Of a stretch of DNA of 64,000 nt, positions 4,051 to 27,065 are shown in pieces (the first letter of the stretch is position 1; every line of letters starts with the position of its first letter). This DNA comes from Cladosporium halotolerans (taxonomy: Eukaryota). The stretch covers positions 62,001-126,000 of the forward strand of contig NW_027191480.1 in the NCBI RefSeq assembly GCF_011745625.1. The letters run 5' to 3'. Position numbers and translations under genes: made by a program. The notes beneath the pieces were generated by a model that was not told the origin of the DNA, searched no databases, and worked only from the letters and a program-made list of their open reading frames with translations.

Positions 4051-4149
4051 GCTATTTTTTAATTAGTATATAGGTCTTTTATATATATATCTTAGAAACG
4101 GTATAGGATAGAATTATTTAATTAATTACGTATCCTATATTATACTATT

Positions 4150-4798
4150 ATATAATATTAGATATAAAAGTAATAGCTAGAGTATAGTACTATTATTATA
4201 CTAGGACTAGAAGAGTATAATAGAATAGGAAACGTAGCTAGTTTCTCTACTTCTATATAAGTACTATATAGGAGTCCTATAAGTAGATTATATCTAAAAG
4301 AGCTAAAGACTTTTAAAAGGAAGACTTTAAAAGAAGCTCGAGACTTTATTTAGTTTTTATAACTAGTCTTTATACTAGTTCCTAATACTTATAATATAGA
4401 ATAGAAGAAGATCTTATATAGTATTATATTTCTTATAGGTAAGCTATATAAGATATAGTACTAGAACTATAATATATCTAATTTAGACGAGTATTTATAA
4501 AAAGACTTTAAATCTCTTATATTTAATTTAGTCGAGGATCCTATAAATCGTAGCCTAAGTATAACTATAGTATATAAGATAACTAGGTAAAATAAGAGAT
4601 AGACTATATAGGCGTTTATAATAGAGCTTATAACTTTAGAAGAATAGATAGATCTATATACTCTAGAATAATATACTTACTATCTTCTTATAAAATTAAA
4701 GCCTATACTATATATAGCTATTATTATATATTATAATATACTAAAGAGAAAGGAAGACTTAGTCTTTCTTATAATAAGGTTAGAGTTTATAAATAGAA
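4150..4798 (+). mobile_element. Second RIP-degraded Gypsy gag fragment, opposite orientation, cut by LTR-like repeat A
   Basis: The de-RIPped plus frame from ~4290 reads PxxFKGKTLKEARDF..LVF..P..Y..E.KKILY...L.GEP..W, which is similar to the minus-strand gag at 3380-3560. Confidence 0.55.
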
Positions 4799-5385
4799 TA
4801 TAAAAACGTAGGTTATAATAGTATAACTTTAATATCTAGATTCTATACTAAGAATAATTCTTAAAGAGCTTTTTCTTTTTTTTAAGAATATTCCTTTCTT
4901 ATATTATACTATATAAGTATCTTATATACTTATTATAAGTTCTATTTTTAATATTAATAGTATTATTATAATATATTATAATAACTTTATAAGTATATTA
5001 TAGCTATTCTAATATAGATACTTATTCTTATATTAAGTCCTATATCTTTATAAGAAGTATATAATTATTTTATAAAAGCTTTAAAGTTATCTTATAGTCT
5101 TTATATAACTATTATATATTTAATTATATTTTTATAAGAGCTATTATATATTATAATAGTTCTATATATACGACTATTATAATATATAGATAGTCTATTA
5201 TTTAAATTTAGTACTTAGTATTAGACTTTCTTATACTAGTACTATATTTATACTATACTTACTTTATAGCTTATACTTTATAGCTTTAAAGGATAGCTAA
5301 TATAGTTAGTATTTTATCTAGCTATTTATATAAAAACTATATATATACTATAGTTATTCTTTATTAAAGAACCTACTTTATAATA
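4799..5385 (-). repeat. LTR-like repeat copy A (RIPped)
   Basis: Its reverse complement aligns along its length with 6299-6983, mostly via transition differences. Ends TAT...ATA are consistent with RIPped TGT...ACA. No matching TSD. Confidence 0.7.
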
Positions 5386-6298
5386 TAATAGTTATAGATA
5401 TTTATAAACGGTTTACTAGACTTACTAGGAATAAGTATAGATATAGCGATATACGTATAAGGATATTAATAATAGCTTATTAGTATCTTTATTAAAAAGA
5501 TACTAGCGAAGTAGTTATATATAGATTATAGGTATAGTAAAAAGAGAAAACGAATAGCTTAAGAATCTCTTACTTTACTTATCTATAGAATTCTTATTAC
5601 TATATTAGTATAGGTATTACTATATAAATAGTTAATACGAAGCTACGTAAAGTAAGTATATACGCTTTATATATAAGGTATAGATTACGAGTTTACTATA
5701 TCTATAGATAGAGTAGCTTAGATTATATACTTTTACTTTCTTAGATATATTATAAAAGATATATTATAGAAGAGGAGGTAATTATTATAGGCTAGATATA
5801 AAGTAATATTCGTATATTATATATATAGCCGATCCTATACTATATACTTAATATTAGTTATATATATATATATAACTCGTGTACTTAATAGTAGTAAAGA
5901 AATAATAATTAGTTTTCTTTATATTAGAGTAGTAATTAATCTAGTATCTTCTATATTATAAAATACTTCTTTTTAGTTATCCTATTTAGAAATACTCTTT
6001 TAATATCTAGCGAACCTTATCTACCTACTAGAGTAGCTAGATAGTATATATCTATATAGAAGGATTATCGCTAGTAATTCTATAGCCCTCCTATAGCTAC
6101 TAACTATAATACTACTATTCTCGTCTTTATAAGACTAGTTAGTAGAATTACTAGGAAATAGGAATAATAGGAGTAGAAGTAGAAGCTATTATTACCTTTT
6201 ATATTCGATCGTAATCTACTTCTTATAAAACATCTCTAGAGTAAAGACTTAATTAGCTATATAGTATTACTAAAGCCTTTTAGTAAGAATAGGTTATA

Positions 6299-6983
6299 TA
6301 TTATAAAGTAGGTTCTTTAATAAAGAACGACTATAGTATATATATAGTCCTTATATAAATAGCTAGATAATATACTAGCTATATTAGCTATCTCTTAAAG
6401 CTATAAAGTATAGACTATAAAGTGAATATAGTATAAGTATAGTACTAATATAAGAAAGTTTAATACTAAGTATTAGACTTAAATAGTAGATTATTTATAT
6501 AATATAATAATTATATATATAAAGCTACTATAGTATATAATAGCTCTTATAAGAATATAACTAAATATATAGTAACTATAAGAAGACTATAAAGCGACTT
6601 TAAGGCTTTTATAAAATAACTATCTATTCTTTATAAAGATATAGGACTTAGTATAAGAATAAGTATCTATATTAGAATAGCTATAGTATACTTATAAAAC
6701 TACTATAGTATACTATAGTAATACTATTAATATTAAGAATAGGAAGCTAATATATACTAATTATAAATAAAATATAAATTAGTAGCTAAGGAATAGTAAG
6801 ACTTTACTATAAGTAAGTAATAGCTAAAGCTATTATTAAGAGCTTATAGTAAATATATAGAATACTTATATAATATAGTATAAGAAGAAAGTATTCCTAA
6901 GAAAGAGAGAAAACTCTTTAAAGATTATTCTTAATATAGAATTTAGATATTAAAGTTATACTATTATAATCTACGTTTTTATA
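6299..6983 (+). repeat. Solo LTR-like repeat copy B (RIPped) with 5-bp TSD
   Basis: Inverted homolog of 4799-5385 with an extra ~100 bp at ~6748-6842. Flanked by TTATA at 6294-6298 and 6984-6988. Confidence 0.7.
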
Positions 6984-8009
6984 TTATAATCGGATATATT
7001 AGAAGACTATATATACCTCGTATAGTAAGAGCTAGTTACGTAGGTAATAATATATAGTAGCTATATTAGAAGAATCGACTATATTATCTATAATAACTAT
7101 CTTTATTAAAGTAACTATAATAGTAGAACCTAGTAATAATAACTATACTATTAGAATTAATATAACGTCCTACTACTACTTTCTAAGAGAGAGCTTTAGC
7201 TAGAACTATAGTAGCTATAATATCCTTATAGCGTAACGCGTTCGATCTATTACTAGAGTATAATAAACTAGTCGCTACTCTTATAGAATAGTTATAGCTA
7301 TTAGATAACTTATTATTATAGGTAAGCTATAGCACGTATAGAAAGTCACTCCGAGGTTATATAATAGGATTATACCTAGAGGTAATCCTACTTTAGGTAT
7401 CCGGAATTCGTAGATAAGTAAGTAAGCCGAGAGTTTGGCTTATTCCTAACTTCGTACTTTATAATCAATATATAGCTTTTCGAGCTACGTCTTATCGATA
7501 GGACTAATATTAAGATTAGTCTTTAGTCTATAGTTAGCTCTATATCCGATCCGTTATACTCTTATACCTACTCTCTACTCTACCTACCTACTACTTATAA
7601 TATCTACGCCTAGTACTCGGGACGCTAACGTAGTAACTTTCGATATATTATCGCTATCGCGGCCTTCTAAGATAAATAGTCCTAAGGGATAACGAGGAGT
7701 AAGCTCTTTATAATACTCTCTATTATACCTAAGGCTACTATCTTACGATAACGATACTATATAGCCCCTCGTAGCTTTATAAAAGGCGGTAGTATCCGAA
7801 GTTAAGACTAAGCGTATATCTTACGTATAGCTAGTAATTGTTTATAGGTCTCTATAAAAGTAGTAGTCGATAGCTAGTTATTAGTACCCTCTTTCGTTAT
7901 ATAGAACTCGACCCCGTGCCTCCTAATAGCGACCGCGGTCTATTCGAAGTTCTAAGTAGAGGTCTAGTAAAGCTACTTCGTAATCTTAGAGGCCTCGCTA
8001 CGCGCTTAG

Positions 8010-11000
8010 GGCTCACCGGGGCCCATGCGAAGATTACGCGGTTGTGGGACTCTTTCAGACGTCTCACATGTTTCAAAATGCCGCTGATGATCCATTGTCC
8101 GGACCTTCGGGTGCCATTCCGCAACGTAACCAGAACGGTGCGGTTGTTGGTGAACACGTGCGTGACTTGGCCTCGCACGCGCGCCGACAGTGTATTGTCG
8201 TACACCGCACTGACGACTAAACCAAGTCCCACTTCGATCGAAGCCAGTGCGGCTGTGTAGGCATCACTTTGCGCGTTGGTGCCTATCGTCTTGTCGTACT
8301 CGCATCGCTCAGAGTTGTTGCGTATCCAGTCAACGCCATCGATGGCGCCGCCGATGCCAACCAACCCATTTCTGGCCGACGCGCTGGTGGCGACACGGAT
8401 GCCCTGGATGCCTTGGGCGCACCCGGCTGCTTGCTCACCGTCGTCTACACTGTTGGCTATGTCGAGTCGCGCGTCCCACGGGGCCGAGATGTAGGGCTGG
8501 GTCGCCTCCAGCTCATCCATCGGTGCTCCGCATGCGGACTCTGCGATCTTCTGCAAGGGTGACGTGTACCTCTTGCACGCCCGACGCCTGATCATCTGCG
8601 TAAGAGGGTGTGTGCTGGGAATGCTGTGCAGATCGACCCACATCCTCAGGGCTTTCCGTGAGTGTCGTTCTCCTATCGTGGGCAAGTTGGCTTCTGCCTC
8701 TGCCACCGCTGCACCGACCGTCTGGAAACACCCGATCACTGCCTGTCCACCGACCCTCTGCACTCGCTTGAGCGCTCTCTCTGCACTGGCCGTCCTGGCG
8801 TGCGTCCATACGGACGATGCGTAGTCGACCACCGGTGCCACCGTCGCGTTGAACAGCTTGCGTGTCACTGACGGCGACAGTCCTCGCAGTCGCTTCAGCG
8901 CCATGGCCGCCTGCAGACCCCTTGTCGCAGCACGCGCGGTATGCTCTTGGTAGCGCAGCCGCGAATCCATGAGCAGTCCTAGAATCTTGACGCTGGATGT
9001 GGGGTGTACCTCTTCCCCTTTGACGCTCATCGTCTCGTCTGCGGACTGACGGCTGTTCCTCGTGAAGTGGATGAAGGCAGTCTTGTCCCCCTCGAAAGAG
9101 GCCCCGCTCCTGCTCTCCCACTCGGTCGCTCGCTGTACGATAGCATTGAGGCGAACCATGTTCTCTGCGGCGGTCGCACCCACGACCCACGCAGTGTAGT
9201 CATCGACAAAAGCGATTGCACCGCCGTTCTGGTCGATACGCTGCTGGACGAGATCCGCATTGAAGAAAAGAAACAGGATGGGTGACAGAGGCGAGCCTTG
9301 CGGCAGGCCAGCCTGTTCGAGGTCTCTCACAGCGGATACCTGCCCATTCACAACAATCGTGGCCGTGCGTTCAGAGCAGAAGGCGCCAATCCAGTTCACC
9401 AGATCTGACGGGATACCTCTGGCACGTAGTCGCTGTAGCAGTCGGTCCTTGTAGACTCCGTTGTACGCCCCCTTCACATCAAAACTGACTAGGCTCACCA
9501 TTTTCTTACTCCTCCACGCCGAGTATATGCGCTCCTGGAGGAGCAATAGCGCCTGCTCCGCAGACCTCTGCTTCCTCGCGCCGAAGTGGTTGGCTGGCAG
9601 TAGTCCATAGGTTTCAACCGCGAACGATAACCTATCGGCGACAACCGCCTCCAGCAACTTTCCCAGAGTCGATAGCAGTGAGATGGGTCTCCATGCCTTC
9701 GCCAGGGTGTAATCGTCCTTGTTGGGCTTCTTGAGCGGGATGATCTTTGCGATCTTCCATTGCTGGGGCAGGGCTCCTGTGTCGAGGGACGTTTGAAAAA
9801 GTTGATGGACACTCTCACTCACGGCTGGCCATATCTGCCTCCACACTCCAGCAGGGAGACCGTCTTCGCCTGCGGCTTTCCATGGCTTGGTCTTCATGAG
9901 ACAGCGTTCGATCTCGTCCACGGTCAGCTCCGGCATGGGTACGGGTTGTCTCTGTGGTCGGTCTTCTTCGTCCTCTATGTTGTCGGGTAGTGGCGGGAAA
10001 AAGGTAGCAAGCAGCTGCTCGGCCTGCTCCGAGTTGTTCGTCGTTGTTGGCCCGTCCGCCTTTTGCAGAGGCGGGATCCTCGACCACCCCGAGCCATCGT
10101 CAGGCTTGAGGTAGCGGCTAGCCTTCCAGATGTTGGTGTCCTCCGACAGGAACTCGTCCCAGTGCAGTCTTTGCTGCTTGCGTATCGCATCATGGTACTC
10201 CTTCGCTGCCGCTCGCGCTTGCTGTTCCAAATCCGGCAGTGCCTCCCCGCCTCGTCTATGCGCACGCGCCCTGTTCCTCCAGTACGTGTGGACCTGGCGG
10301 AGCTTCGTGAGGTCCCTGGTCCACCAGCGTTTCTCGTACGGAGACGGCTTGGCTTTGGGAGTCAGCAAGTTGACCGCGTCCAGGACCGCCTGCATCAAAC
10401 GGTCCGCTTGTCTCTGGACGTCGCCACAAGCTGGTCGATCGTCTAATGCTCGGGAAATGCGCTCTCGAATCGCGTTCCAGGGGGAGCATTCTTGAACAAC
10501 AGGCGAGGTTGGGTGGCGCGATCTGGGACTTCGACGTCAAAAGACGTCTCGATCGCGCGATGATCTGACCCGTGCTCCGTGTCGTGGATCTTGCACTTGA
10601 GGACGTCCGACGCCAAATTCTGCGACGCTAACATGAGGTCGATCGTGGTGGCGTGCATTGCATTCTGCCATGTCTTGGTCCCGCGGGGCAAAAGGCTCTC
10701 GAGGCTCCATCTGTTCATGAAGTCGATGATGGGGTCTGCTTCGCCCTGTCGCGTCGGCAGCAACCCGTCCCCTCCCCACAGCTGGTCATGCCGATTGAAG
10801 TCGCCGGCGACCACTACATCGAGGCGTGGGCCACCGCGGCGCTGCGCCGAGCTTATTGCCATGTCGAGCAGCATCACCGCCTCGCTCAGCGCTGCACCAT
10901 TTGCTCCTTCCACATACACCGACGCGAGCAACACTGCCCTGTCCGGCAGCCGCAGCAGAGCCACTGTGAGATCTGCCGACGGCACCCTCACCTGCTCGCA

Positions 11001-11252
11001 CTCGATGTCTTTGCGCACCCACAGCATGCTCCGCACCGCCCACCGCACATCGTGTCTCTCACTCGGCAGGATGGCCGTCCAGCCCTGATGCCCCATCGGG
11101 CTCGTCCTCACCTTCCCATCCATCTCGAACACGTACGGTTCGCTGACGACGAGAGCCGTGTACTCCTTCAGACTTGCGTCGTTCATCACGCTGTGCTGCA
11201 CCTCTCGCCGTTTCTGCATGTTCAGTTGTAGGATTTGCATCGGCTTAGACAT
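8010..11252 (-). pseudogene. LINE ORF2 (APE endonuclease, RT, partial RNase H), disrupted
   Basis: APE motifs ILQLN, SEP, GDFN, TIDL and SDH. RT motifs RPISLL, FDVKGAY, GLPQGSPLSP and FVDD. Frameshift in the G5 run at 10480-10484 (FKNAP|WNAIRERI continues into the 7897..10398 ORF). Homology stops at FAWAPVSP, ~8010. Confidence 0.88.
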
Positions 11253-12705
11253 CAGTTGCCGGATAGAGGATACGACACTGGCGGCTGGGCGATTCGTGAG
11301 GCCCGTCGCATATGGCACATTTGGGCTGTTCTGCCTGGCAGTCACTGTGGCGGTGGCCTGGCTGGGCATACCTGCTGCAAACCTGCTCTTTGGTGCACGA
11401 AAAGGCTTTGTGTCCGAGGCTTAGACATCTGAAGCACTGCATCGGTCCACGCCTGGGCTCGAACACCCGGGTGAAGGCCGATTCTCCGTCGACAATGAAG
11501 TATTGGCCCTCCAGAAGCCTCGCGGCGTCTGCGCGCTTGGTCACGTACACGACCATGGATCCGTACGCCTTTTGTACGTCCTTCCGGCTGAGCCACGATA
11601 TCTTCGCAGTACTCACCTCGTTCTCCTTCTCTAGCATCTCTACAGCACCCGTTCGAAGCTCGCCGTGCCCGTCCAACACCGCCGTCCGGCACGCATTGTC
11701 CACCTTGACCGGGTACCACTGATCTCGCAGCACGCGCGACCCCACCGCTTTAGTTTTCTCAACCACCTCCTTCACCCGTGCAAGCTCACTCTCATCTCGA
11801 CAGGTGACGCGGATACGGGCAGCATGACGAGGGTCCCTCGTGACTGCAACGCACCGCCAGCCGCTCCCTTCCTCTCCTTTACCCATCTCTTTCTCGATAT
11901 TCTGTCTGATCTTGCTCACACTTGCATTGTCCCTCTCCGCTTCTTCCACGTTGGTCACGTCCACGGTGCAGTACAGCGTATCCGTGAACGTCGACGGGGT
12001 CGTCCGATTGGAGATTGTCCTGAGGTTGCTAGGGCGGCTGCCGGGCGGCGTGCGCGCTACGTCCGCATACGATGGGTTCGGGCTCGAGTGTTGGACGCTG
12101 GACAGCTGTTTTTCGACAATGGCCGTTACCTGCTCCTGTACAATGCTCGTGACCTGTTGTTGGACGATAGCGGTGACCTGCTCCTTGACTATGCTTGTGA
12201 CTTGCTGCCGCACGATGGCGGCGACTCTCCCGTCGACGATGTTCATGACCTCGTGTTGCACGACGCTCCTGATCTCCCGGCGCACTACCTCACTCACCTG
12301 TTGCTGTACCGTTCTTTTGACCTCCTCCCCGATGGCATGTACGATTTCACGCTGCACTGTGACCCTCAGCTGCTCTTGCACTACGTCCTTGACTTCGTCT
12401 GCGACAGCCTCCTTCACTTGACTGACATCCGGTACTTGGTCGATGGCCTCCTGAACCAGCGCGAAGCGCTCGTCGACAGAATCGTGCACGCCGGCGATGG
12501 CCTTCAGGATCGTCTCCAGGCGGGACTCTTGGACATCGCTGCTTTTGTCGGTGCTTTGACTCGGGATTCTCTCCCTTGCCAGAGTGCCTCGGTGCAATCC
12601 TTTGTAGTCAATCGCGGTGCGCGAAGCTCGCGAGCGGCCCAGACGTGTCACCCCCGGCGACGCGCTGTCGTCAGGTTGCGGCAACGGGCGCGCAGCGGCG
12701 GCCAT
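11245..12705 (-). CDS. LINE ORF1 gag-like protein with coiled coil and three zinc knuckles
   Basis: C-terminal CFRCLSLGHKAFSC, CSRYAQPGHRHSDC (second Cys replaced by Tyr) and CAICDGPHESPSRQC. First ATG is at ~12705. Confidence 0.85.
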   Translation of the reverse strand: MAAAARPLPQPDDSASPGVTRLGRSRASRTAIDYKGLHRGTLARERIPSQSTDKSSDVQESRLETILKAIAGVHDSVDERFALVQEAIDQVPDVSQVKEAVADEVKDVVQEQLRVTVQREIVHAIGEEVKRTVQQQVSEVVRREIRSVVQHEVMNIVDGRVAAIVRQQVTSIVKEQVTAIVQQQVTSIVQEQVTAIVEKQLSSVQHSSPNPSYADVARTPPGSRPSNLRTISNRTTPSTFTDTLYCTVDVTNVEEAERDNASVSKIRQNIEKEMGKGEEGSGWRCVAVTRDPRHAARIRVTCRDESELARVKEVVEKTKAVGSRVLRDQWYPVKVDNACRTAVLDGHGELRTGAVEMLEKENEVSTAKISWLSRKDVQKAYGSMVVYVTKRADAARLLEGQYFIVDGESAFTRVFEPRRGPMQCFRCLSLGHKAFSCTKEQVCSRYAQPGHRHSDCQAEQPKCAICDGPHESPSRQCRILYPATDV

Positions 12706-13336
12706 TGATGAATATGCCAACTAGGCACAATAATTACTTAAAAAGCGTCTTTCCTCTCAATAATAAAAACTAGTCCCCACACCTCGGTACCATTGAATGG
12801 TGTGGCGGTGACGTTTCCCCGCTCGCTTCATTGCTTGCTCGTTGATCAAGCCAGCGAATCTTCGCAAATGTAATAATGAGATGTGTCCGCTGTTATTTGC
12901 CATTCATAGTGGCTGAGGCAAATTTCCACTTGAGAGTATATATATACACAATGGCCGAGAAGCCCTATATCACAACGTACACCTGGCCAGAAATGCCAGT
13001 AACTTGTCCAATACAAGTATTCGCACTAATACACAAGCCTCAATGGGGTTTCTGAGCCTCATACATCCATTGCAAGTAGTCGTCCACACCGGTAATCTCG
13101 GGTTCATCGGGTTTCAGCTCCGGCTCCATCTCTGCCTTCGGCTGTCGATCCTTGGTGATCTCAGGCTCAGCGGATCTGCTCTCGGATTGATTCTCAGACT
13201 TCTCAGACAAAGCACCCTCCTTCCAGAGAACCTTATCCTGTCCCTTCTCCATATCATCCAGCTTCCTCCTAAACTTTCGTCCCTGCTCGGCCAGGTTCCT
13301 CAGAGCTCCAGGTAGCCGTTATCAAACTTCCGGAAG

Positions 13337-13890
13337 TTGCCGTCAACTGTATCACTCTCAATCCAGAGTGAACATAGTGAACGGACATGGCTTCTGGAGC
13401 AAGGCAAACAGATTTGCAGGGACTTCGAGCGAGGTGACTGTGTCTTTGTCGAGACGCCTGCTATAAAGTTGCAATGCCCGTGGCCTACCGATCATACGGA
13501 TGATGCCATCAAACCCGCAACTGTAGCTTACTTCTATCGAATTTGTGTGAAGTACATCATGGCCTCACGGCTTCTCCTGGGGTTATCACGTGACGACGGC
13601 CATTGCTTTACAGCTTGTCAGAAACCCAAGCACGGATGGCCTCATTTTGGACACGGTCATATTGTTGGCTATGGCGTGGAATGGGGTAAGAATGCAATCT
13701 TTTTTACCTTGAACGGTAAGAGGCTTGGTAAGTCCACAACCCTGTACGATAGCCAGAACTGTTTTGTAGTTCTCAACTAATTTGGTCCAATGATCAGAAC
13801 CAAATGTTAGCTTCAAGCCTTGCCGGTTGTACCATGCTATAGGCCTGAGTCAAAGCGGTGCGAAGGTCCAGGCAAATTTCGAAGCGGTGG
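13337..13890 (+). pseudogene. Degenerate SPRY-domain gene fragment
   Basis: SWGYH(G)DDG with a 1-nt deletion at ~13590, then GHIVGYGV..IFFTLNGKRLG, a GTAAGT intron at ~13727, and RLYHAIGL..GAKVQANF. Confidence 0.7.
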
Positions 13891-13949
13891 CTCCCGGCCT
13901 TCCTGGCGTCACTTTTCCGTCTTCTGTTTCTTAATGACTTCATTTTGCG

Positions 13950-14815
13950 ACATCCAGGCTATACTGCTGGAGAGGGGTCCTCGGGTTGGATTTGTGCTCA
14001 AAGCAGCCACCATTATCGCCGCGGTAGCCCCAACTGGCCTCCGAATGACCTGGAAGCTTAAAGAGCGGGACATCTCTCTCGCTGAATCCAACACTGATAA
14101 TCCTAGAGAATCTTAGTAGATGTTTAAGACAGGTCACATTATCTTTTGTCGAGGACTTGTACCCTTCACTAGTTTGTACTCACTGGTCAGTGCCTTCAGA
14201 TATGATAACAATCTTGAAATAAAAGTCACCGTGTGGAGAGACAGGATGGTCTGCAAGAACTGCGGCGGGGAGCGTTTCTTGAGCTTTTCCTACCGTCTCA
14301 TCCGTTAGCCTCTTAGATTTCTGATGGCAATACATCGCCTTCTTACCTTCTTCGGGGTGTGAATTGGCCCGAGGTTCAATTTCACATCCGGTTCCGTCAC
14401 ATTGCAGTTGGGGCGACTTTTCAGTCATGCTCCAGGAGCCTGGTGTCTTAAACCTTGAGGGGCTTCCTACTGGAGGCCACGTATCTCCTAGTTGTGACGC
14501 TTCTTCAAGGACCACCAACCCTCCAGTGCACTCACACTGATTCCCAAGCCAGCTGCCGAGGTTGTTCAAGCACATAGCCCAGCATGGGTGGTCGAGCAGA
14601 GTCGCCTACACTGCTTGTCGGGCGGCGTCAATGGCCTCTCCTAGGTCTTTAATCTCTCCATTGCGCTCATACCGTTCTTCCAGCATCACTGCAAATGAGT
14701 AACGTGCAGGATGATTTGCAAGGCTCTGGCCTGCCATTCCCGGACCCTCTCTAGCAAGTTGGATGGCGACATTTAGCTCCTTGATCTCTCATGATTCTCT
14801 GTATACCTCGTAAGA
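13950..14815 (-). pseudogene. Degenerate TPR-repeat plus PRY/SPRY gene relic
   Basis: TPR-like ERYERNGEIKDLGEAIDAARQAV*ATLLDHP..CLNNLGSWL with in-frame stops at 14789-14791 and 14606-14608. Then WSMTEKSPQL, ADHPVSPHGDFYF, a predicted intron and IISVGFSE..LPG..SWGYRGDNG. Confidence 0.7.
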
Positions 14816-15680
14816 GCGGACTGTCTCCGCAACTAAGACGCCGCGACACCTTCCCTATCCATGCTAATATGTTCTGCCAGCTGTTTGTCAAGTAAGTTGC
14901 GCAAACTCAATCTCGTTTAGCGAGAACTCTATCCTTCGATGTAGCATGATATTATACACCGTAGTGGACAATGATCTGGTGAGTTCAGAAAATCACTGAG
15001 GTGGAGACCATAACGAGCCTTTTTCTCATCCTACAAAGCAGATCCCGCGCTGCTGCTTAGCGAAGTTCTCATGTGCTATTGTTATCACGGACCTCACGCG
15101 AAGCTTCCTCCGATGGCTTTCTGCCACTAAGCGCTCTGGCTGTATGTGAGCTTCTTAGCTTACGCTCGACAAACTTTGCACTTGCAGTGTTTTTCTCGAT
15201 TTGGCTTAGAAAGGAAGATGCCTTACATACATTGCACACACGCTAAGTGCAAGGCTCGGCATGTCACAAGAAGAGATATCACATTTCAGATCCAGAAATC
15301 GTGTGCTTGCAGGGAAGTGGGCATGTAACGAGGTCCTGTCTGACACTTTACAGCGCTCGATCCAGGAACGAAGGCCACAGAGTCAGTCAGTAGCCGCATC
15401 TTTGATGCCTCCCGAGTGGCTCGACTAGGAATCAAAAGATCCTGGTGAGGGCTTCCTGGAACCAGGAACCAGAAACCGTGGTCAGGCTCCGTCTGGTTCC
15501 AGCGTCACGCGCAGCTTGTATTTGAGATGCGGGAAGGGCCGCGCGCTTCCCAGGCGCTCGTAGGTGACAACCGGGTTCTCATCATGTTCCTGGAATTTGG
15601 GATCAGCAGCTACGGCACGTGATTTAGAATGTTACTGGGAAGCGCCGAGCCCGTCCAAGGGCAGGTGACAACCGTACACT

Positions 15681-15765
15681 CCGTCCGCTCTGCCATACAT
15701 AAGCACTGAACCGGGCGACTAGTACTAGAGTGGGTGACCATCTGGGAATCCCGCCTGTTGTATGT
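15681..15765 (+). rRNA. 5S rRNA gene, 5'-truncated (about the first third missing)
   Basis: CCGTCCGCTCTGCCATACATAAGC...CTAGTACTAGAGTGGGTGACCATCTGGGAATCCCGCCTGTTGTATGT followed by a TTTT Pol III terminator. The expected ACATAC.. 5' end is absent. Confidence 0.92.
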
Positions 15766-15989
15766 TTTTGTCCTTTGGCTTTCCTTTTTGCACTTTGATC
15801 TGAACTTCACATCCTCGCCCAAGACGGATGATCGAAGACGACTCCATTAAACCTAGGTGTAGTACCACTCTGACCGCTAAAAACTTGCAGTTTGTAAAGT
15901 TACCACGAACAGACGGTGATCAAATCCTCCCTCAGTACAGCCTGAAGTGTTCGCTATTGTCTGTACCTTAACTGTTTGATTGGTCATTA

Positions 15990-17454
15990 CTACTCTGTCT
16001 TTCTACCATCTTCGAGCATCTCATCCGCCGAAGCCCTATAGAACGCCACTCCACCGAGAACCCTCCCAGTAGCAAGATGGTATATCGTGAAACCCCAGTT
16101 TGCGAAATAGACAATAAGCAATGCCAGCAGGAATATCGACGACAGCGCCCGGAACGCCGGAGAATCCAAGGATGTCGACAACAGGATCCACGCAGTGTTG
16201 ACTGTCGCTACCGGGAAGATGGTTCCCCACCAAAGCATCGAAAAAGTGTGCTGGCGATTGATCGCGCCCTCGATCATAGCGCTCAGCGCGAAGAGGGTGA
16301 AGAAGACGGCTAGGCCGAGCAGGAGAAGAGCGACCCAGACGCCGATGCTGGAGAAGGTTGAGCCCCCCATTTGCTGCAACAAGGTACCCTTGCCGTATCC
16401 TCCAAAGTGCATCCTCGAAGCGGTGCCTAGAGAAAGTGCTGCTCCGGCTGCTTGTCCCACAGGCCCGACGAGAAGGAACAGCGTAGGGTATTGGATTGGA
16501 GGCGGCAAGCCGCTGTCGATGAACCGGATCGTGCACGCGGCGAAGACCAGGAGCGCCACGAACAGGCCGACGCCTAGCAGTATGTACGACACGATGATAA
16601 CCGGCACCGCGAGTCGGTCGCTGATCTCAGCGGAGTAGCTTGAAATGAGGCCGCCCACCAGGGCGTTGGTGCACATGCTGACGTATCTGTGAGCGGTCAG
16701 TATCGGTGTGCCGTCGGATCGCTGGGGCAGCGAGCTTACGGGATGACCAGAGCTGGTGCGAGGTCGGCAATGCTCGTCACGGAGTATTTGGCGACCATGA
16801 AGAAGACGAAGACGGCGATGGCCAAAGCCACCGCAGTGCCAATCCACCACATCACGAACGCCACCAGTGTGAAGGCGTGAGAGCCCCAACCGGCTTGGCT
16901 GACCGTGAGGCTAACCTGTCGAGTCCGTCAGTGATGGGAGCGGGCGAGATCAGGATTTGGCGGATGAACCTGAGCGACGAGAGTGAAGTACGCAATGGGA
17001 ACGGTCCCGGTCATACTGAGCTCCACAAGATTTGTCGTCATGTCTTTGGCCATGCGCTTCGGAAATAAAAAGATTCTCACCAGGAGAATAAGTGTGAAAA
17101 GAATGAAAAGCACTAGATTAAAGACGAACATGATGGTCGAAAGTATACCCAGGCCCGCGAACTGATTTCCTGTTATTCGATGTGCAATTTAACAGGTGAT
17201 AAGCCCCGGCTTCGAGATGGACATACCTGGTAGGGATTTTGATGCATTATAATCGATACTGATCGCGAAAATGTCAGCAGATCTTTCTGTTGCAACTGCA
17301 GTCGCGTGCTTACGTATGCCTGTGTCCATCAACACGGTGAACCTGCTCATATGTCAGATAGCACACCCATCGTTGTGAGCCCGACAAACCAAAGAAAAGA
17401 AAAGTTCTCAACAACCACAGAGGGTAGCGACCGTGTGTCATGTTGTGTATCCAT
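15990..17454 (-). CDS. TDT/SLAC1-family (Mae1/Ssu1-like) anion or dicarboxylate transporter, multi-exon
   Basis: Spliced reading MDTQ..NFSFLWFTVLMDTGILSIIMHQNPYQF.., then LLVGPVGQAA and FSMLWWGTIFP, with many TM helices. About five GT-AG introns. Confidence 0.85.
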
Positions 17455-17968
17455 AGTAGTATTTTATCGACTGTCGTTCGGCCAGAACGATTATGCTGAA
17501 GCCTGATTCTAGCGATCAATGCCGACTGAGAGTAATGTGACAGAGCTAATGTGACGAAGCAATGTCTAATTGTTGTAGCTTTTGGCGTAGACAAAGGATT
17601 GCTAGGTATTATTATTAGAGATTATCACACGACTATTGAATATCCTGCTCTTCCGGGGTAACCGCTTGCAAAGCTGCCGTATATCAAGTTCCTCGTGACG
17701 TCTGCGAATAGTTGTGATGTCAGTGTGAGTATTATAGATGAGATTGTATGGCGTCGACGTTTCGATCCGGCAACCCGGATCTGAGTCCGTGTCCGAAGAA
17801 AGCCAAATAATAACTTCACCAAGATAGTGACTGCATCTACAGTCGCGAATCAAATACTGCAAGACGCCTGTAAGCTGTGTACGGTTTTTTCGAACACGGG
17901 TGACATGGCCACTACCTCCAAAAAGGTGCATGAAATCCAACTACAGAAGCTCACGCCTGCGTGCTCCA

Positions 17969-19322
17969 CTACCACACGACTGGCATGGCGGTGACACCCA
18001 TGTTTTGCGTAGCCGGCGTATACTCCAGGCTTTCCACGGGCACCGCGAGTTTCAAGTCCGGTAGTCGCTGATAAAGGACGGCTGCAGAAACCATTAACCG
18101 GATGGCCCCATGTATCCACCTCAGGAGCGTACCTACCGAAGACTTCTTCCAACTCAACCCGAGACAGCCACTCGCCCTGACAACGATGCGGACCCCAGCC
18201 GAACCCCAGGACGTCCTTCGGCTCTACTCGGCGGTGGATGTCGAAGCGGTCTGGGTGCGCGAAGTGCTCTTCGTCGCGGTCCGCGGACTGCACCGAGCAG
18301 ATAAGCTTATCGCCTTTCCTCATGCTCTAGGGTCGCCGTTCGCGTCAGTATCTAGATCATGCTCTCTCGAGCGCAAATGGATGCAATATGGCAAGACTCA
18401 CCTGTCCGCCAATCTCAACATCCTCGTTGACCGCGCGCCGGCTGTTGAGCGCCGACGTCGTGTTATAGCGCGTCAGCTCCAGCACGACGTCCTTCGCGAG
18501 TTTCGGGTCCTCCTTCAGCTCGTCGCGCTGGCCCGCGTGCAAGTGCAGCGTCACGACGCCCAGCGCGATCGAGTTGATGAGCGCCGCGTTGCCGGCGACC
18601 AGCACGAGGAAAGCCAGGTTCACGATCTCCTCCAAGCTGAGCTTGCCCTGCTTGTACGGGCCCGCGACCAGATGGCTCACGAGATCGTCCTTCGGGCTCG
18701 GGCTTTCAATTCGCCCTTTCACGAACTGTTCCATGTAAGCCTGCAGGTTGCGGTTAGAGCTCTGCGCCGCGTCGCGCGCCGTGCTGGTGCGGACCTCGCT
18801 GTCCCTCGACAGCGCCGGGATGTCCTCCTCGGGGATCCCCAGGAGGTGATAGATGACCTGCGGCGGCACGAGGCCCGCGAACTCCTGCACAAAGTCCACG
18901 GGCTCGCGCGTGTGCTCGCCATGCTTCCCGACGAGCTCGTCGAGGTTAGCCTCGACGACCCGCCTCATCATCGGCCGCATCTTCTCTGCCGCCTGCGGCG
19001 TGAACCAAGCCTCCAGCATGCCGCGCTGCTCGGCGTGCGCCGGGTCGTCGAGGTTCACGAACGTCGGCGTCTGCGCCTTGGCCTTGCCGCCGCCCTCGTG
19101 GATCTCCGGGTACGCGGCGTGCCGCCTGTCGGCGGAGAGCTGGGGCGCGGCCAGGGCGGCGCAGCAGTCTTTGCGCTTGGTCAGTAGCCAGGATTCGCTG
19201 TCGTCGAAGAGCTTTACTTTCACGATGGGGCATTTGTGACGCAGTTCTGCATTCTCCGGAGGCGGGTGGAATGTTTCGCGTCGTGCGAAGGGGAAAGTCA
19301 ATGTTTCGGTAGGTGCGTGCAT
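17969..19322 (-). CDS. CYP55: Cytochrome P450nor-like (CYP55, soluble bacterial-type P450), 3 exons
   Basis: FPFAR..HPP, PTFVNLDDPAH..QR, I-helix AFLVLVAGNA, ELTR (ExxR) and heme motif FGWGPHRCQG. No membrane anchor. Introns at 18401-18327 and ~18136-18083. Confidence 0.85.
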
Positions 19323-20328
19323 CGCCGACTTGAATAGCAGTGATTCTTGCGTGCTAGATAGCGAGGACGCAATCGCGGACTTGAACGAGCAATATTGTAT
19401 AGCGCCGCTGCCGCTCTTTTGGTCAGGGATCGGTCCTATGTACCTCCAATCGGGCAAGACGGCAGAGGCGGCATAGCCGGCCCAGGTTCCACGACATCAT
19501 AATGTACGCATTGCCTGAGTGACGAAGTAAGCTCAACAACATCCTACAGCTTCTCCACGGATTGGCGGCAATGTAGGTATGGAACAGGAGTGTTTTAACT
19601 GACACAACTTACGTGCCTTGATTCGGACAGAGCGCCCTTGACTTTCGCGGGAAAAGTAACCCAGACAGCTCTGTGATTTTCCCTTCCAGACTGTTCCATG
19701 TCATGACGGAACGATACGTTGGCGAAGGCTCCGGGAGGCGTCGAAGGGCGATTTGTCCAGTCTCCCATTCTCATTGCAACCAGCCCTTGGCTCGCGAAAG
19801 CAGGATGGGAAAAAAGGGGCCAGGTTTGATAAAAATTGGTATCATTCATAATACTCAGCGTAAAACACAAAAGGTATCAAACAAGAAGCCAAAAAAAGTA
19901 AGTAAGTATACTCCCCTACAAGTCCCCAGAGCAGAGTAGAGCGAAAGCGAAACGTCAAAAAAGCATTTTCGTATCGTCAGTGAGTTCTCTCACCAAGACC
20001 GTAAACGTCCCTCCCCCTATTCCCAAATATCACAGCAGCCATCTTCAGGCCTTCCTTCCTCTTTCCCATGGGCTTGAGCGGGAGCGTCTATCCACCTGTG
20101 TGTCCTCAGCTCAGCCTAGGCCCGGATCCTTTTTTTCCTCAAATTGCTCGATCATTACAAGGAATCGTGAAGCGAATTGTGTTTAATTTTTTAGGTTCGA
20201 TCTTCCTCTCCCGCATGCCGGATCCGTAAAGCGTGTGAAATCGTTGCAGTGACTGTTGGAGCTCCGTGCTCTGAGCTCGCCGGATCCTGCAGCGCTGGCC
20301 AGAAGCGATCAGAAAGCCATGCGTTGGT

Positions 20329-22665
20329 TTACTTGTCTCCTCCACCACCAGGCTGCAACGCGTGCGTGTGGCCAGGCGCTCTGAAGACGGCGCCGTTCTC
20401 TTCCTGGCGACACACCAGGGCATTCTGCACCCAGGGGTCGGCGAGGACCTCGTCCATCGTGGCGCGCTTGCGCGGGTCGAGCTCCAGCATGCGGCCGATG
20501 ATGTGCCTGGTCTCGCGCGGGAGGAGACGGAGCAGGCGCATGGGGCCCTTGATGGTGCCTGATTCGGAGGAGTTGGTGGACTGGCGTGATGCGGGTTCGG
20601 TGCGGGGCTGCGAGTCGTTGTGGTGGTGGTGGTGGTGCTTGTGCTGGTGTTCAGAGCTCGTGTCGTTGGTCGAGCCCGTCGGGTTGCGGGATGCGGGCTC
20701 GGATTGAGTGCCGCGCTTCGAGTCGTCCTGACTGCGGTGGGAGTGAGGTGTGATTGAGCGGCGGTTTGCGTCCATGAGACGATCCTGTTCGGGATCGGGG
20801 GGAGAGACGAAGAGTCGGTAGGAGTTGTCCGAGATCCGCGGCGCTTTCCAGGGGAATCGGCGAAGAGTCATGCAACAGAAGATTATAGCTATTGACCAGA
20901 TATCCGCCGGCCTAGGGTCGTATCGCTGGTTGTCGTATACTTCGGGTGCAAGGTACGGATCAGAACCGACGACGCCTGAGAATTGTTAGTTGACTACACG
21001 TCTAGTGGCCTTCCGAGGATTGTGTTGCTCACCTGTCGCCAGTACGACCTCATTCTCAAACGGATAGCGAAAGACAACCGCACTCCCGAAATCGATCAAC
21101 TTCATGATGCCGTGCTCGTTGATAACAACGTTGTCCAGCTTCAAATCACGATGCGCCAGACCCATCTGGTGCAGGTAGCACACTCCGCTGACAATCTGCA
21201 GCGTAGCGCACGTAATCTCGTCTCTCGTCATCTTGCCAGTCATGACCGTCGCGAACAGGTCGAACGGCGCATATTCCATAACTTCGTACCACTTGCCCTT
21301 CTCGTGGACAATGTCGATCGTCTCGATGATGTTGCCGTGGTGCAGAGTCGACCCTATACAGAACTCTGCGGTGACCTTCTTGTTGTACTCTCTTTCGCTC
21401 TCGTATGCGTGGCGATCGCGGAATTGCTTCACAGCGAATGTCACGCCGTCTCCAGTGCGCTTCATCAGGCGAACAGAGCCTCCAGCGCCAGAACCGAGGA
21501 TCTTGCCGAATTTTCCATATTTTGATGCAAGACCATGGTCGTCCGCAAACGGAATAGTAGGAGTCTGCGTGCCATTGGTAGGCGGCGTCTTCGTGCCGTC
21601 TCTTGACTCCGACCTGCGCTTGGCTTCCTTCTCCTTCTCCTTTTCCTTGTCCTTGTGCTTGTACTCGCCAATTTTGAAAAATCGCTTGAGGTTCGACTTC
21701 GAGCTGCCGTGTTTCTCGTGGCCGCTGTCGTCATCGTGCTTTTTGCTGCCACCGAAAAAGCTTGAGCGTTTGTTCTCGTGTTTCGTCTCACTGAGGTTCG
21801 CTGAGCTTCCTGGTGTGGACCGGGGAAGACCAGATACAGTTGCAGGCATGGTGCCTGGAATTGTACCCGAGCTCGAGAAGCCTTGCGCGGGGTCTCGGTT
21901 GCCGAACCTGAATCGCTGTTCTGCTGTAGACGGCTGTCTAGAGTGGGACGTCGGTTGCATTGCAGGAGTGCCAGGCGCAGTGTTGGATGGGCTCACGTCA
22001 GAAGAAGGCGGCTCCGAATCTCCAGTGGGACCAATCGAGAAGCGTGGTGTCTGTTTAGGGTGCGCAGGAACGCCTCCCGCCTGCTCTGATTGAGGTGCGG
22101 ACGTGGGAGCTCTTTGCGGGGAGGAAGATCGCTGTGGTGTCATGACATCGGGTGCCGGACGTGGAAGCTGCACAGGGTTGTAGAAAGGCTTGCTGTCGCG
22201 GCTCTTGGTTGCGGTCGGAGTTAGCGGGGGAGAATGCACTGCAGTGGTCGGCGGAGACGGTCTAGGAGATGCTTCGGTTGAGCCAGCAGGCAGATGCCTC
22301 CTGCTCGGTGTTGCAGCGCCAGAGGGCGTTGCTTGGCCTGAGGGTACCTGAAATTGAATGTCAGCACTGGGAAAACGTACTCAAGCGGTGAAAATGCTCA
22401 CTCTAGAAGCTGGCATGGAGCCGGGGAGTGACACGGGTTCGAAGGCATGGTGTTGCATGCGCGACGACTGAATGTTGTTCTGGAGGGTGGTCTTCAGTTG
22501 CGCCAGCTCCTGCTGGGCCTGAGGGTTCAGGTCTTCTCTCTGCCTGTCGGCAGAATTGGAAGAATCAACATCCTCCAAGCTGTGTTCGGGCGCAATCTCT
22601 TGGTTCTCGGCCGCGAATCGCACACCCGTCTTCTCCATCTGCGGGTCCTCCATGGGAGTGCCCAT
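20329..22665 (-). CDS. hal4: HAL-family (Sat4/Hal4-like) Ser/Thr protein kinase, 3 exons
   Basis: [31 protein letters not shown] and RRFPWKAPR. Introns at ~22401-22348 and ~21032-20977. Confidence 0.88.
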
Positions 22666-24728
22666 GACGTCTGAGATGGGATGTGCAGATGACTGCGAAA
22701 GTCTGGTCGAATTTTTGCTGCTCTCGCAGACACCCGCCGTCCTGTGGCAGCTCCGGTGGTGCGGTGTCTTAGCTCAGAGATCCCTCGCGAGAATCAGTCC
22801 AGAGACACTCTCCGCGGTGGAACCGAATAGTACGTGTAATGCCGACGTCAGCGGAAGAATACAGGCGACACGGCGAGCGGGCGACGATGCTGAATACAGC
22901 GCGATGGGGTCTGGCAGTCCAGCAGTCTATGGTATAGGCAATGGGCGGTGGAAGGTGAGAAGTCGGAAGAGGCGCCGGGGTCGGCGTTCGGAATGGCTTG
23001 ATGCAGTAAAAAAGCTATGCGGATGACTCTAGCGCGGGGTGGGCTGCTGACCGGAGCGGCGTGCAGAGAGGGAAGGAGGGAGTCGGCACTGCGCAGCGAC
23101 GGGGTGCAATACTGGCAGACGGGCAGCAATGGACGAAGCGATGTGGCCGCAGCGGTGTGTGTGAGTGGTATGGACGAGAGGAGCAGCAGAGGCCGTGGGC
23201 CGGGAAGAGTGGGAGCTGTCTGGCTCGGGCGTGGGGGAGTAGCACGACAGGCGGGCGGCACAGATTGCGCTGGACGGGCGTAGGGCGGAGACGTAACCAC
23301 GCCTGGCTGCACCGACGGGCGATGGACACGCTACCTCACGACGCTGCTACTGGCCGACTGCTGCTTCTGCGCCGGCCTCTGGTTGCTTGGAGCGCACGCG
23401 CAGCCTGCACGCCTTCACACGGTGGAGCCCGCATCAGACCCTCTCGTGCCTCTGCTCGCCGTAGCTCGCCATGGGTGAAGCATCCATCCCTACCTTCCAT
23501 GCTGCACCCGCCCTTCTCCCGCCGCCGCTCAACCTCTCACTCGCCGCCGCCCTACGCCACACCCGCGACATGTACCTAGCAGAAAAAAAATTCACGTGCA
23601 ATTTTCGGGCGAAGACGTCTCCTGCAGGTATACCGCTATCCAACTCAGGCAACGGCACGCCGCCCAGCGCCAGCGATTCGGCACGGCTGCCGGCTTGGGG
23701 CGGCGTGTGGAAAGGCTTGCGCAAAGCCTTCCGCACTCCCTGCCGCCGATCTCCAGCGCAGCCTCCAGCGCAAGCAGCCGACGCGCATGTCATTATTCGT
23801 GCTCGATCCATCGCAGCGACCGCGCTACGAGAGTCCAGGCCCGCGGCACGAGCCCGCCGCATGCCGTGCACTCGCCGTCCGCGAATTGCACGTCGACGAC
23901 GGCCCTCTGAGGGTGTGCTCGCTGTGCTTGAGACGCGCTCCCTTGCCCACCGCCACGCACCCTCCTCGTGCTGCTGAGGCGGTCGTGGCGCTGTTTCATC
24001 CCACTCTGCCCGTCGCGTTCCTGCATGATCGTACGGCCGACGGCAGGGGTGCCGCCGCGTAGGGTGTTTGGTACTGGCCGACATTGGGAACACTCGAGCT
24101 TCCCCAACGCGCAACACATGGTTGATGGGGTGGTCTTTGTGCTGCCTGTCAGCTTCAGTCGTCTGGGCGTGTGCTCTTGTTGGGCCGCGTCGCCTGATTT
24201 TGACTCTGTTGGACTTGGGTGCTGTTTCACCGCAACGGGGTTTGCCAGCGTGATGTTCAGATGCCTATACATGCCCAAGAGCCAAGGGCATGAAAACAGG
24301 CCCGATAGTAGACTTGATCCCAATCCCCCACATCACCGTCCCGGTTGATGCGGCATTCTAGAACAACCCTACGGTGGGATCGGTGAGAGTCTCGCAACAG
24401 TATGCCGTCATCTATGAACTCAGAGCACATTCACATGCACACAACTGTTGTGATGACGTTGTCAATTGCCGTTGATCGCAAACACCGATACTAGAAACAT
24501 CTGAGATCGAGTTTCTGGAGCCTGTGAACCTAAGCAGACGAAGGATGCAGTGGAGTGATACGGCTCGTACACATGAAGCCGTGAAGCTTGTGTACAGATC
24601 CTGTCGTGCGTTTACTTTCCGCAACTGGTAGTGTCGTGGATCGTTCATCGCAACCAGCACACCCGGGCATTGCAGCTTTGAACGAGCAGTGCCGTCACCA
24701 AACCCGAGCAGCAGATGGGCAAAAGAGA

Positions 24729-24811
24729 AGGTCTTACCCGGAATCGAACCGGGGTTGCCGGAAGGCCGATGTAATCAGAATCCGAAGTGCTAACCGCTAC
24801 ACTATAAAACC
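24729..24811 (-). tRNA. tRNA-Gln (CUG) with 11-nt intron
   Basis: GGTTTTATAGTGTAGCGGTTAGCACTTCGGATTCTGA[TTACATCGGCC]TTCCGGCAACCCCGGTTCGATTCCGGGTAAGACCT. The cloverleaf folds. Confidence 0.93.
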
Positions 24812-26054
24812 CGTGTTGCATGGTTTGATTTCGCTTGCACACAAAATATTCGTATATTTTTTTCCTGTGCAACGCCTGATCACTAACATCCGTATCGTAT
24901 CTAGGCATGCCCGTGGAAATTGACCGGGATGGTTTTACTGGAAATAATACAGATGCGGGCTGATGAGCCTCTTGAAGGGTACTCCGTACTGGACGGCATC
25001 ACTCTTGCAGGGCTTAGACCGGGGAACGTCTTGCTGCAGTTTTTGCTGAAGAGTCGTGGAGCACATAATGCTCGCCAACAAGGCCACTTGTGAAGCTTGT
25101 AAAGCTTTGAGTCTTCGACGCATAGTCAGAAAACCTCGCCGTCCCCAAGTCTCGGATTCCCAAGCTGAAGAGTGCGCAGGAAGACGGGCGATATTGACAC
25201 CCTAACCCTAACCCTGCTTACCCTTATCTACGGTCGACGGGGTGGTCGTTGTTTCGACCACTGGCTAAGGTAGATATGGAGGTCGCTCAAATCGCAACGC
25301 GCTCTTGTCTTCAGAATGTATGTCGAAAACAAACGCTCTCTGAACGATCGTCGTGAAATACACTGGCGACGGTGGAAGAAGTCATCCATGAATCGACAGA
25401 CGGTTTGGTGGTGTATCTCAATCAAGCGCAGGCGCAATGAGTCCCAAACAAATCGAACACTTCAAGTGAAATCATTATGGCTACGGAAAACATCAATCAT
25501 CGGCATTACGCAATTGACACACACACTCGCTCTACAGCCTCACTCTGTCCCCGAGTATCGATTGAATGGCTTCCTCAGGCACGGACAGAGAAGCGTCAAC
25601 AAACAGCGGAAGCACGACACCGTGCGATACAATCAATGATATGGAGACTGCCGCTTAACCCAGGCTGCGCATATTACATGAAGATCATGCGAGGGAATCC
25701 CTTTCGAAAATGCACCTCAACAAGTGAGCTTGTCAAGCAATGCCGTCCATCGAAGGTGATCTGGCTCAGCACGTCGAGTGTTACCAGCACCTCAACAACG
25801 AATGAAGCACTAAGTCCGCACCTCTCGTGCTTGTGCACACACAACACAGACCGTGCAAAAACACTACGGCTCGACATCCCAGCAATCCAGCAACCTATCT
25901 CGTAAGCGTCTTCAAGCCATGACCGCTCGCTGGAGTCGCGCCAGCAGAAGCCTCAGGCCGCAGCCACACCCCCGCGCCTCGCCGCAAAGCTTGGCGCCCG
26001 CGCAGCACCTACAAATTATTCCACGCGCTCGCGATCCCTCTCTTTCCTTTCTTC

Positions 26055-26354
26055 ACGCGACTTTGTGAGTACTCCCCAGGCCACCCATACTGTGGCCTCT
26101 CCAACTCCAAAAGCCATGAGGACTAACGAATTCTCCCACGACAGACTTCATAGAATCATTTCTATAGTAAACGTCCATAACTGTGTTCTCTACATGAGCC
26201 ACAGACTCCAACCTGGCTGATGAGCCGATGCCCCGGGCCCAAGAGTGATGCCGACGTGCGCGAGCCTCGTCTCGCGCGGCGATGATCTCAGCCCAGCTCA
26301 GTGTCTGGCTTCGGCCGGCTGTGCTGGGAGGGTCTGGCGGTATGTCTGACAGGT
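26055..26354 (+). ncRNA. U3: U3 snoRNA with a spliceosomal intron (26065-26144)
   Basis: GAC box, then box A'/A ACTTCATAGAATCATTTCTATAG, C' GATGA, B AGAGTGA, C GATGATC and D CTGA, with terminal stem ACCTG/CAGGT. Intron GTGAGT..GACTAAC..CAG. Confidence 0.93.
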
Positions 26355-26984: not shown

Positions 26985-27065
26985 CGACGTTGGCAGGACT
27001 CGAACCTACGCCCCCGAAGGGAATTGATTTCTAGTCAATCGCATTAACCACTTTGCTACAACGCC
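26985..27065 (-). tRNA. tRNA-Ser (AGA), no intron
   Basis: GGCGTTGTAGCAAAGTGGTTAATGCGATTGACTAGAAATCAATTCCCTTCGGGGGCGTAGGTTCGAGTCCTGCCAACGTCG, with a long variable arm. Confidence 0.95.

Follow-up and report, generated by a model that had tools for sequence, protein, structure and literature searches.

The window, a 64,000-nucleotide stretch of the Cladosporium halotolerans genome (contig NW_027191480.1, positions 62,001 to 126,000 of the forward strand), contains a 5S rRNA gene that starts abruptly next to foreign sequence, which raises the question of what has cut this gene. A first reading, made from the sequence alone (the sequence-only reading), proposed that the foreign side is the end of a giant 5S-targeting mobile element of the Starship type. 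The analysis described here addresses this proposal through the cut gene itself, its counterparts in metagenomes, the DNA on either side and the elements known from the literature. That the 1-15680 side is the end of a mobile element integrating site-specifically into 5S genes is held with high confidence, and that this element is a Starship or a Starship remnant is probable, although by a smaller measure.

The cut 5S rRNA gene

The letters at the junction read ...GGCAGGTGACAACCGTACACT|CCGTCCGCTCTGCC..., and the sequence is 5S-like from 15681 onward, reading CCGTCCGCTCTGCCATACATAAGC...GTTGTATGTT followed by a T-run. The 5S fragment at 15681-15766 (+) corresponds to positions 35-120 of the 120-nt gene, and 86 of its 86 bases match the consensus of intact genes, which was derived from 82 metagenome loci. 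This gives an exact form to the earlier estimate that about 85 nt of the 3' part are preserved behind an abrupt start at about 15681. The break falls between 5S positions 34 and 35, within the motif CCCGTCC (5S positions 34-40). The sequence-only reading had named CCCGTCC as the motif at the breakpoint, with another copy inside the foreign side. The inner copy is real and is discussed below, but the junction itself reads TCCGTCC, the full CCCGTCC being the letters of the intact gene. The fragment keeps the internal control region; the native upstream region is gone, as are the first 34 nt of the gene, which foreign sequence replaces. The native region 3' of the gene is present (15765-15789, +), with a T5 terminator at 15765-15769 and a second T5 run at 15785-15789; such a second T-run downstream of 5S is seen in 99 of the 104 metagenome loci that have at least 40 nt of downstream sequence.

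In the Rfam search, the 5S model RF00001 matches 15647-15766 (+) with 34.7 bits (E 5e-05 when 1.5 kb is searched, E 0.0021 for the whole window), which is under the gathering score of 38. The alignment is clean in the 3' two thirds only, and non-standard pairs are flagged through helix I and helix II. The stretch 15681-15766 is a fragment of a 5S gene and not a gene, since it lacks the full-length RF00001 match that includes helix I. RF00001 matches slightly under the threshold can flag element ends. The same search gave no second 5S match in the 64-kb window. The missing 5' part would read ACATACGACC...GGGCATCCCGTC; intact 120-nt 5S genes of the metagenomes start with ACATACGACCATAGGTCAGTGA(G/A)AACTGGGCATCCCGTCCGCTC, and their positions 1-40 end in ...GGGCATCCCGTC. 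The 5' 34-mer was not found on either strand of the window with up to 8 substitutions, nor with up to 4 substitutions when C and T or G and A were merged to allow for RIP, and the earlier statement that the 5' part is unrecognisable in the window therefore holds even when mismatches are allowed. A Logan contig from run X22 covers 12703-15707 with one mismatch and spans the junction, indicating that the join is not an artefact of this one assembly; X22 is the best-matching run and probably the source sample, and is therefore not independent.

Recurrence of the breakpoint and the modular terminus

With a 30-mer from the 3' part of the 5S gene, 120 JGI metagenome loci (L001-L120) were retrieved, 34 of which are too short upstream to judge. 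Among the 86 judged loci, 82 are intact and four (L036, L043, L067 and L075) are interrupted at the same breakpoint nucleotide by a related terminus (...GGGAAGCGCCGAGCCCGTCCAAGGGCAGGTGACAACCGTGTACT|CCGTCCGCTC). The terminus of the window reads ...GGGAAGCGCCGAGCCCGTCCAAGGGCAGGTGACAACCGTACACT|CCGTCC, that of L075 ...GGCGGGTGACAACTGTGTACT|CCGTCC and that of L043 ...GGGAAGCGCCAAGCGCGTCCAAGGGCGGGTGACAATCGTGTACTCCGT|CGTCC, and in L067 the terminus ...GGGAAGCGCCGAGCCCGTCCGAGGGTCGGTGACAACCGTGAACT is followed by 11 extra nt. L036 has GGGAAGCGC in common with them, also spaced by 44 nt; its last 18 nt resemble a 5S sequence altered by transitions, and it reaches 43.4 bits with RF00001, over the gathering score. 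Judged by these features, L036 may be a mutated whole 5S gene instead of a cut copy, so that the loci comprise three clear copies and one doubtful one. The downstream flanks of the four loci show no similarity to each other, to the window or to any other locus, indicating separate insertions and not one inherited locus. A related terminus at the same nucleotide in 4 of 86 loci thus bears out the central proposal of the sequence-only reading, namely that the foreign DNA to the left of 15681 forms the end of a site-specific 5S element. No empty-site alleles were found among the fetched loci, since none of these shares a flank with L043, L075, L067 or L036.

The inserted element ends at the junction in a terminal module (15637-15680, +; GGGAAGCGCCGAGCCCGTCCAAGGGCAGGTGACAACCGTACACT) that is conserved in L043, L067 and L075 and diverged in L036. 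The inner copy of CCCGTCC, the target core, lies in this module (15650-15656). It is not there by chance, since the module is conserved in L043 and L067. A second, degenerate subterminal module (GGGAAGGGCC...AGGTGACAACCG) is found at 15520-15582 (+) from a direct repeat and a module scan; the direct repeat AGGTGACAACCG occurs at 15562-15573 and 15663-15674, and the start-to-start distance of the two modules is 101 nt. In L043, three tandem modules are present, 3, 75 and 158 nt from the junction, against two in the window. An element end has between one and three subterminal modules, each about 75-100 nt long; every module ends in GGTGACAACCGTGTACTCCG, and most also contain CCCGTCC. Beyond the modules, a conserved terminal region (15370-15680, +) can be aligned with L067 by blastn, with 77.1% identity over 15370-15767 and 73.8% over 15370-15687. 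The upstream length that copies have in common ranges from about 45 to about 320 nt.

The 34 nt before the break were also compared, in register, with the 5S positions that they replace. The match is 17/34 in the window and in L075, 16/34 in L036, 17/34 at each of the three module offsets in L043 and 18/34 at an 11-nt offset in L067, where shuffling gives an expectation of about 8.5 (p 0.001-0.005); per sequence, as many matches are also found at 1-4 of some 600 alternative offsets, and the copies are themselves related. The resemblance of the termini to the replaced 5S segment is weak and no more than suggestive. A single tyrosine recombinase that binds similar arms in element and target would lead one to expect such a resemblance. 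Going by their arrangement, the modules are predicted to be recombinase-binding sites of the arm or core type, or else scars of tandem integration. A more specific version, in which each tandem module ends in about 20 nt that mimic, in register, the 5S segment replaced (helix II to loop C), most modules add a spare copy of the core CCCGTCC, and the modules serve as arm and core sites stacked by serial tandem integration (accretion), or alternatively in which a new 5S-specific class without a DUF3435 captain is at work, is put forward tentatively and is rather unlikely. If true, the modules would be the first sequence-level picture of target recognition by a 5S-targeting giant element.

Phage and ICE tyrosine integrases integrate into tRNA genes through a short common core in a hairpin-forming small-RNA gene; the arms of the element resemble those of the target (attP/attB), and repeated arm-type sites lie near the end. 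The likeness to the 5S element would consist in the core within a small-RNA gene, the arm resemblance and the repeated arm-type sites. The difference is that the phage and ICE systems are bacterial and that their integration usually restores the gene from an element-borne copy.

Several other origins of the terminus were considered and rejected. A 24-nt insertion between two CCGTCC copies does not apply, as no 5S sequence precedes the first copy. An origin from a LINE or SINE was discarded because the terminus has no coding capacity, the copies share only 45-320 nt and there is no 5' half at the similarity boundary. With up to 4 substitutions allowed, neither the window nor the 120 loci contain the terminal 19-mer in inverted orientation, and a partner end may lie beyond them; the viral contigs gave 0 matches for the terminal module and 0 for the 5S 5' part. 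No TIR or DR string in the available part of the starfish supplement (PMC11162782) had a relevant match to the terminus. As separate observations, a contig of single-copy depth in run X22 joins 15660 back to 15587 (window 15587-15660), which points to an additional tandem copy of the 74-nt subterminal module, either at another site or on another allele. The only extra match between the interrupted loci is a 107-nt segment with 84% identity, inverted between L043 (1613-1719) and L067 (11-117, both in 5S-oriented coordinates); the segment belongs to the interior of both element copies and is possibly a small nested repeat.

The DNA on either side of the junction

The sequence-only reading described everything to the left of the junction as debris of transposable elements and gene relics. 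The left side is indeed rich in transposable elements and holds weak gene relics, but one of its parts is not debris. The interior next to the element end (12721-15369) has no intact gene. It holds two SPRY relics (13316-13777, +, and 13940-14176, -) and a TPR_10 relic (14477-14854, -), all of them under the curated Pfam cut-offs (SPRY 17-23 bits for a cut-off of 26.3; TPR_10 19.4 bits for a cut-off of 27.5). A further relic ORF at 14180-14602 (-) had no Atlas match and no homologue among longer proteins. Next to this interior lies a nested Tad-like non-LTR retrotransposon (LINE; 7897-12720, -) with an RVT_1 domain (E 5.8e-27) and an Exo_endo_phos_2 domain (E 7.2e-21). Its ORFs encode a protein of 491 aa with a weak zinc knuckle, a 308-aa endonuclease and an 833-aa reverse transcriptase, its GC content is normal, about 58-60%, next to RIP-like DNA, and its depth in run X22 is 200-660, compared with about 33 for single-copy DNA. 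Being GC-rich, multi-copy and equipped with long ORFs, this LINE is not debris. It is multi-copy in runs X22, X1, X2 and X4, and one variant lacks 11277-12619. The remainder of the left side (1-7890) is an AT-rich, RIP-like block with a GC content of 20-28%, in which a Gypsy-type RT_RNaseH relic, recognised when stops are read through (about 790-1152, -), and a 446-nt inverted repeat with 88% complementarity (4942-5387 and 6297-6742) are present.

Neither the ORFs of 1-15680 nor a six-frame translation that ignored stops yielded a DUF3435 (PF11917) gene or any other recombinase gene. In the 3 kb next to the terminus, L043, L075, L067 and L036 contain no coding domain and no DUF3435, and in 12721-15680 of the window there is likewise no coding domain by Pfam. 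Such a domain-free 3 kb is expected for an end that lies far from the captain. The Starship accessory genes DUF3723, FRE and PLP were not detected in the left side, and the only NLR-type signal there is the sub-threshold TPR_10 match; genes of these kinds, including NLR genes, are frequent in Starships and not obligatory. NLR-like cargo, named in the earlier proposal, would in the window be represented by this TPR_10 relic only. A left end, a junction with the 5S 5' half and an inverted terminus were found neither in the window nor in any fetched locus. We infer that all of 1-15680 belongs to the element, and its size and its recombinase are deduced in the same way.

The first gene of the conserved right flank is represented by an exon of an anion channel of the SLAC1/TDT type (15990-16889, -; PF03595, E 4.4e-35). 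Runs X1 and X2, from organisms A and B, cover 15744-26999, and a contig of X1 covers 15744-18933 with 18 mismatches (about 99.4% identity). In both runs the depth is 0 in the bins 7000-7666 and 13003-15003, and about 57-59% of the bin 15004-15670 is covered, as estimated from bin depth against contig depth. The partly covered bin may represent the same terminus and cut 5S with another interior, or a copy elsewhere. This pattern of cover places the boundary between variable and shared DNA at the 5S break or within about 400 nt of it, and the depths fit an accessory region of at least 8.7 kb that ends at the 5S gene. The junction marks the boundary between accessory and core DNA of the contig.

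The sequence-only reading had suggested that relatives be compared at the right flank for an empty site with an intact 5S gene. The relatives in X1 and X2 keep the flank and lack the unique DNA sampled on the left, but no contig with an intact 5S gene was found at the right-flank locus, as the contigs in all runs break inside the 5S repeat (15707/15744); for this reason an empty site is not demonstrable there. When the TDT protein was used to look in the metagenomes for the orthologous site in its empty state, 35 pattern matches resulted, none of them a relative. The evidence from relatives leaves aside the parts not covered by X4 and the low shares of runs X5-X21. Also present in the conserved right flank are a fungal U3 snoRNA (26137-26354, +; 125.8 bits) and two tRNA genes (24729-24811, -, and 26985-27065, -), one of which has a 13-nt insert in the region of the anticodon loop in the alignment. 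With this snoRNA, intron-bearing tRNA genes and RIP-like AT-rich sequence, the window resembles the DNA of a filamentous ascomycete.

Relation to Starships and competing explanations

Starships move large gene blocks within and between fungi, and to our knowledge the target choice of their recombinases is known experimentally for very few of them. The most likely identity of the element is an Arwing-like 5S-targeting Starship, or a decayed remnant of one. Of the curated Starship insertion sites, 23% lie in 5S rDNA, and the Arwing, Enterprise and Voyager families have mostly 5S insertions, at five or more different sites, the core motif of Arwing being CCCG/GGGC (Gluck-Thaler & Vogan 2024, PMC11162782, as far as the available parts of the paper and its tables go). 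In Table S7 of the same work (starfish), the direct repeats of a set of DUF3435-captained elements are given as 'cccgtc' (up) and 'cccgtcc' (down); the hosts are Fusarium equiseti, F. fujikuroi, F. oxysporum (two assemblies), F. proliferatum and F. redolens. The family was looked up for two of these captains, those of F. equiseti and F. proliferatum, and both belong to fam09 in Table S4, that is, to Arwing (PMC11162782). In these Fusarium elements, captain and 'up' repeat share a strand and are 1-4 kb apart, and the available portion of the supplement does not itself place the elements in 5S genes (PMC11162782).

Where Arwing elements insert at a CCCG/GGGC core, mostly in 5S rDNA, the break in the window lies within CCCGTCC of a 5S gene. 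The direct repeat of the Fusarium elements is identical to the 5S core at this breakpoint, the 'down' repeat has the orientation of 5S, and the captain is at the end opposite the 5S 3' part. The Fusarium layout predicts a captain far to the left of the junction in the window. As far as the source describes them, the Fusarium elements are also large and carry NLR and TE cargo. There are differences as well. The window holds the right boundary only, where CCGTCC of the 5S core follows the terminus, and its junction repeats only CCGTCC or CCG. The Fusarium termini that are given (...atgaaagaaac beside the direct repeat) are unrelated to ...CCGTGTACT in the window, and subterminal repeat modules are not mentioned for Arwing in the parts of the source at hand.

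In the proposed mechanism, the positions up to 15680 would be the distal, non-captain end of an element integrated into a dispersed 5S gene, with recombination within the core CCCGTCC at 5S positions 34-40, in the hairpin of loop C and helix III. The far end would encode a DUF3435 tyrosine recombinase that pairs the core common to the circularised element and the 5S gene. Strand exchange at the core would then split the gene: its 5' part (1-40) would come to lie beside the captain, beyond the limits of the window, and its 3' part (35-120) at the non-captain end, as in the window.

Other 5S-targeting elements are less close. Voyager of Macrophomina phaseolina is a giant DUF3435 element whose insertions always fall in one variant of the dispersed 5S genes and split it, and its empty sites carry intact 5S (Gluck-Thaler et al. 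2022, PMC9156397, available sections). However, its site lies 20 bp from the 5S start (target GCCCTGTATTCT), compared with positions 34-40 here (PMC9156397). Osiris navis, of the Enterprise family in Aspergillus fumigatus, is specific to 5S rDNA, fragments the copy and gives rise to strain-variable regions according to the sections available, but belongs to another family (PMC12153272). In the available part of Table S7, the Lasallia pustulata element laspus2_s07456 (captain clade01) has the site cggacgggatgcccagt, the reverse complement of 5S 25-41 (PMC11162782), which is the same 5S stretch as the one cut in the window. Its orientation is the opposite, the captain end abutting the 5S 3' part, whereas no DUF3435 is present within 3 kb of the junction in the window.

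Three other explanations have to be weighed. It is unlikely, although not negligibly so, that the terminus belongs to a 5S-specific element other than a Starship, be it an undescribed one, a non-autonomous one or one in which another tyrosine recombinase or a DDE enzyme uses the same core. The subterminal modules and the conserved end of about 320 nt are not a described Starship feature in the available parts of the literature examined, and neither a captain nor a Starship accessory gene was seen in window 1-15680 or in 3 kb of the four loci. The exact core and its orientation nevertheless match the DUF3435-captained elements in the available portion of starfish Table S7. Furthermore, Crypton-like elements are compact, measuring a few kb. 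A recombinase of such an element should appear within 3 kb of the terminus in L043 or L075, and none was found. The lack of an inverted terminus or a 5' half within 15.7 kb in the window and 3 kb in the loci also means that the element is not small. A chimeric repeat, in which about 320 nt and a variant 5S with a diverged 5' third were copied as a unit and no insertion into a pre-existing 5S gene took place, is less probable still. It would agree with the in-register resemblance of the 34 nt before the break to 5S positions 1-34 (17/34 in the window and L075, 16/34 in L036), with the Rfam alignment over the full 120 positions and with the score of L036. Yet in independent loci a single nucleotide separates sequence of about 50% identity from sequence of 100% identity (86/86), which indicates site-specific exchange and not divergence. 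All copies, moreover, keep the downstream T-run pattern of genuine 5S loci, the breakpoint nucleotide falls in a published Starship repeat (Table S7, available portion), and the upstream length in common varies between copies.

By far the least probable explanation is a one-off deletion or rearrangement that truncated the 5S gene, or a misjoin of the assembly at a repeat. Truncated 5S pseudogenes occur in filamentous fungi, dispersed 5S repeats break assemblies, and 15707 and 15744 are indeed contig ends. However, three to four unrelated loci have this breakpoint and a related flank, and this recurrence cannot be explained by a one-off deletion or a misassembly. A misjoin at the repeat would in addition leave the 5S gene intact, and the X22 contig, probably from the same sample, spans the junction. 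An Arwing-like Starship end thus remains the preferred reading. Since this kind of element and its target have already been described, with 5S-targeting Starships and the CCCGTCC core in print, the finding adds to the known picture without altering it. The precise, recurrent breakpoint between 5S positions 34 and 35 and the conserved modular terminus are features that can be tested experimentally.

Some observations concern the intact 5S genes of the metagenomes. The only ORF families that recur near the 5S loci are NLR-ankyrin, 2-oxoacid dehydrogenase E2 and a permease fragment, and DUF3435 is not among them. The intact genes comprise two common variants, which differ at position 23 (GAGAAC or GAAAAC at positions 21-26), and the cut copies cannot be typed by variant because these positions are lost. 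Long NLR-type ORFs (NPHP3_N/NACHT with ankyrin repeats) are found about 0.3-3 kb upstream of the intact 5S gene in L015, L029, L046 and L068; they run past the locus edge and may reflect either orthologous loci or a real association between NLR genes and 5S.
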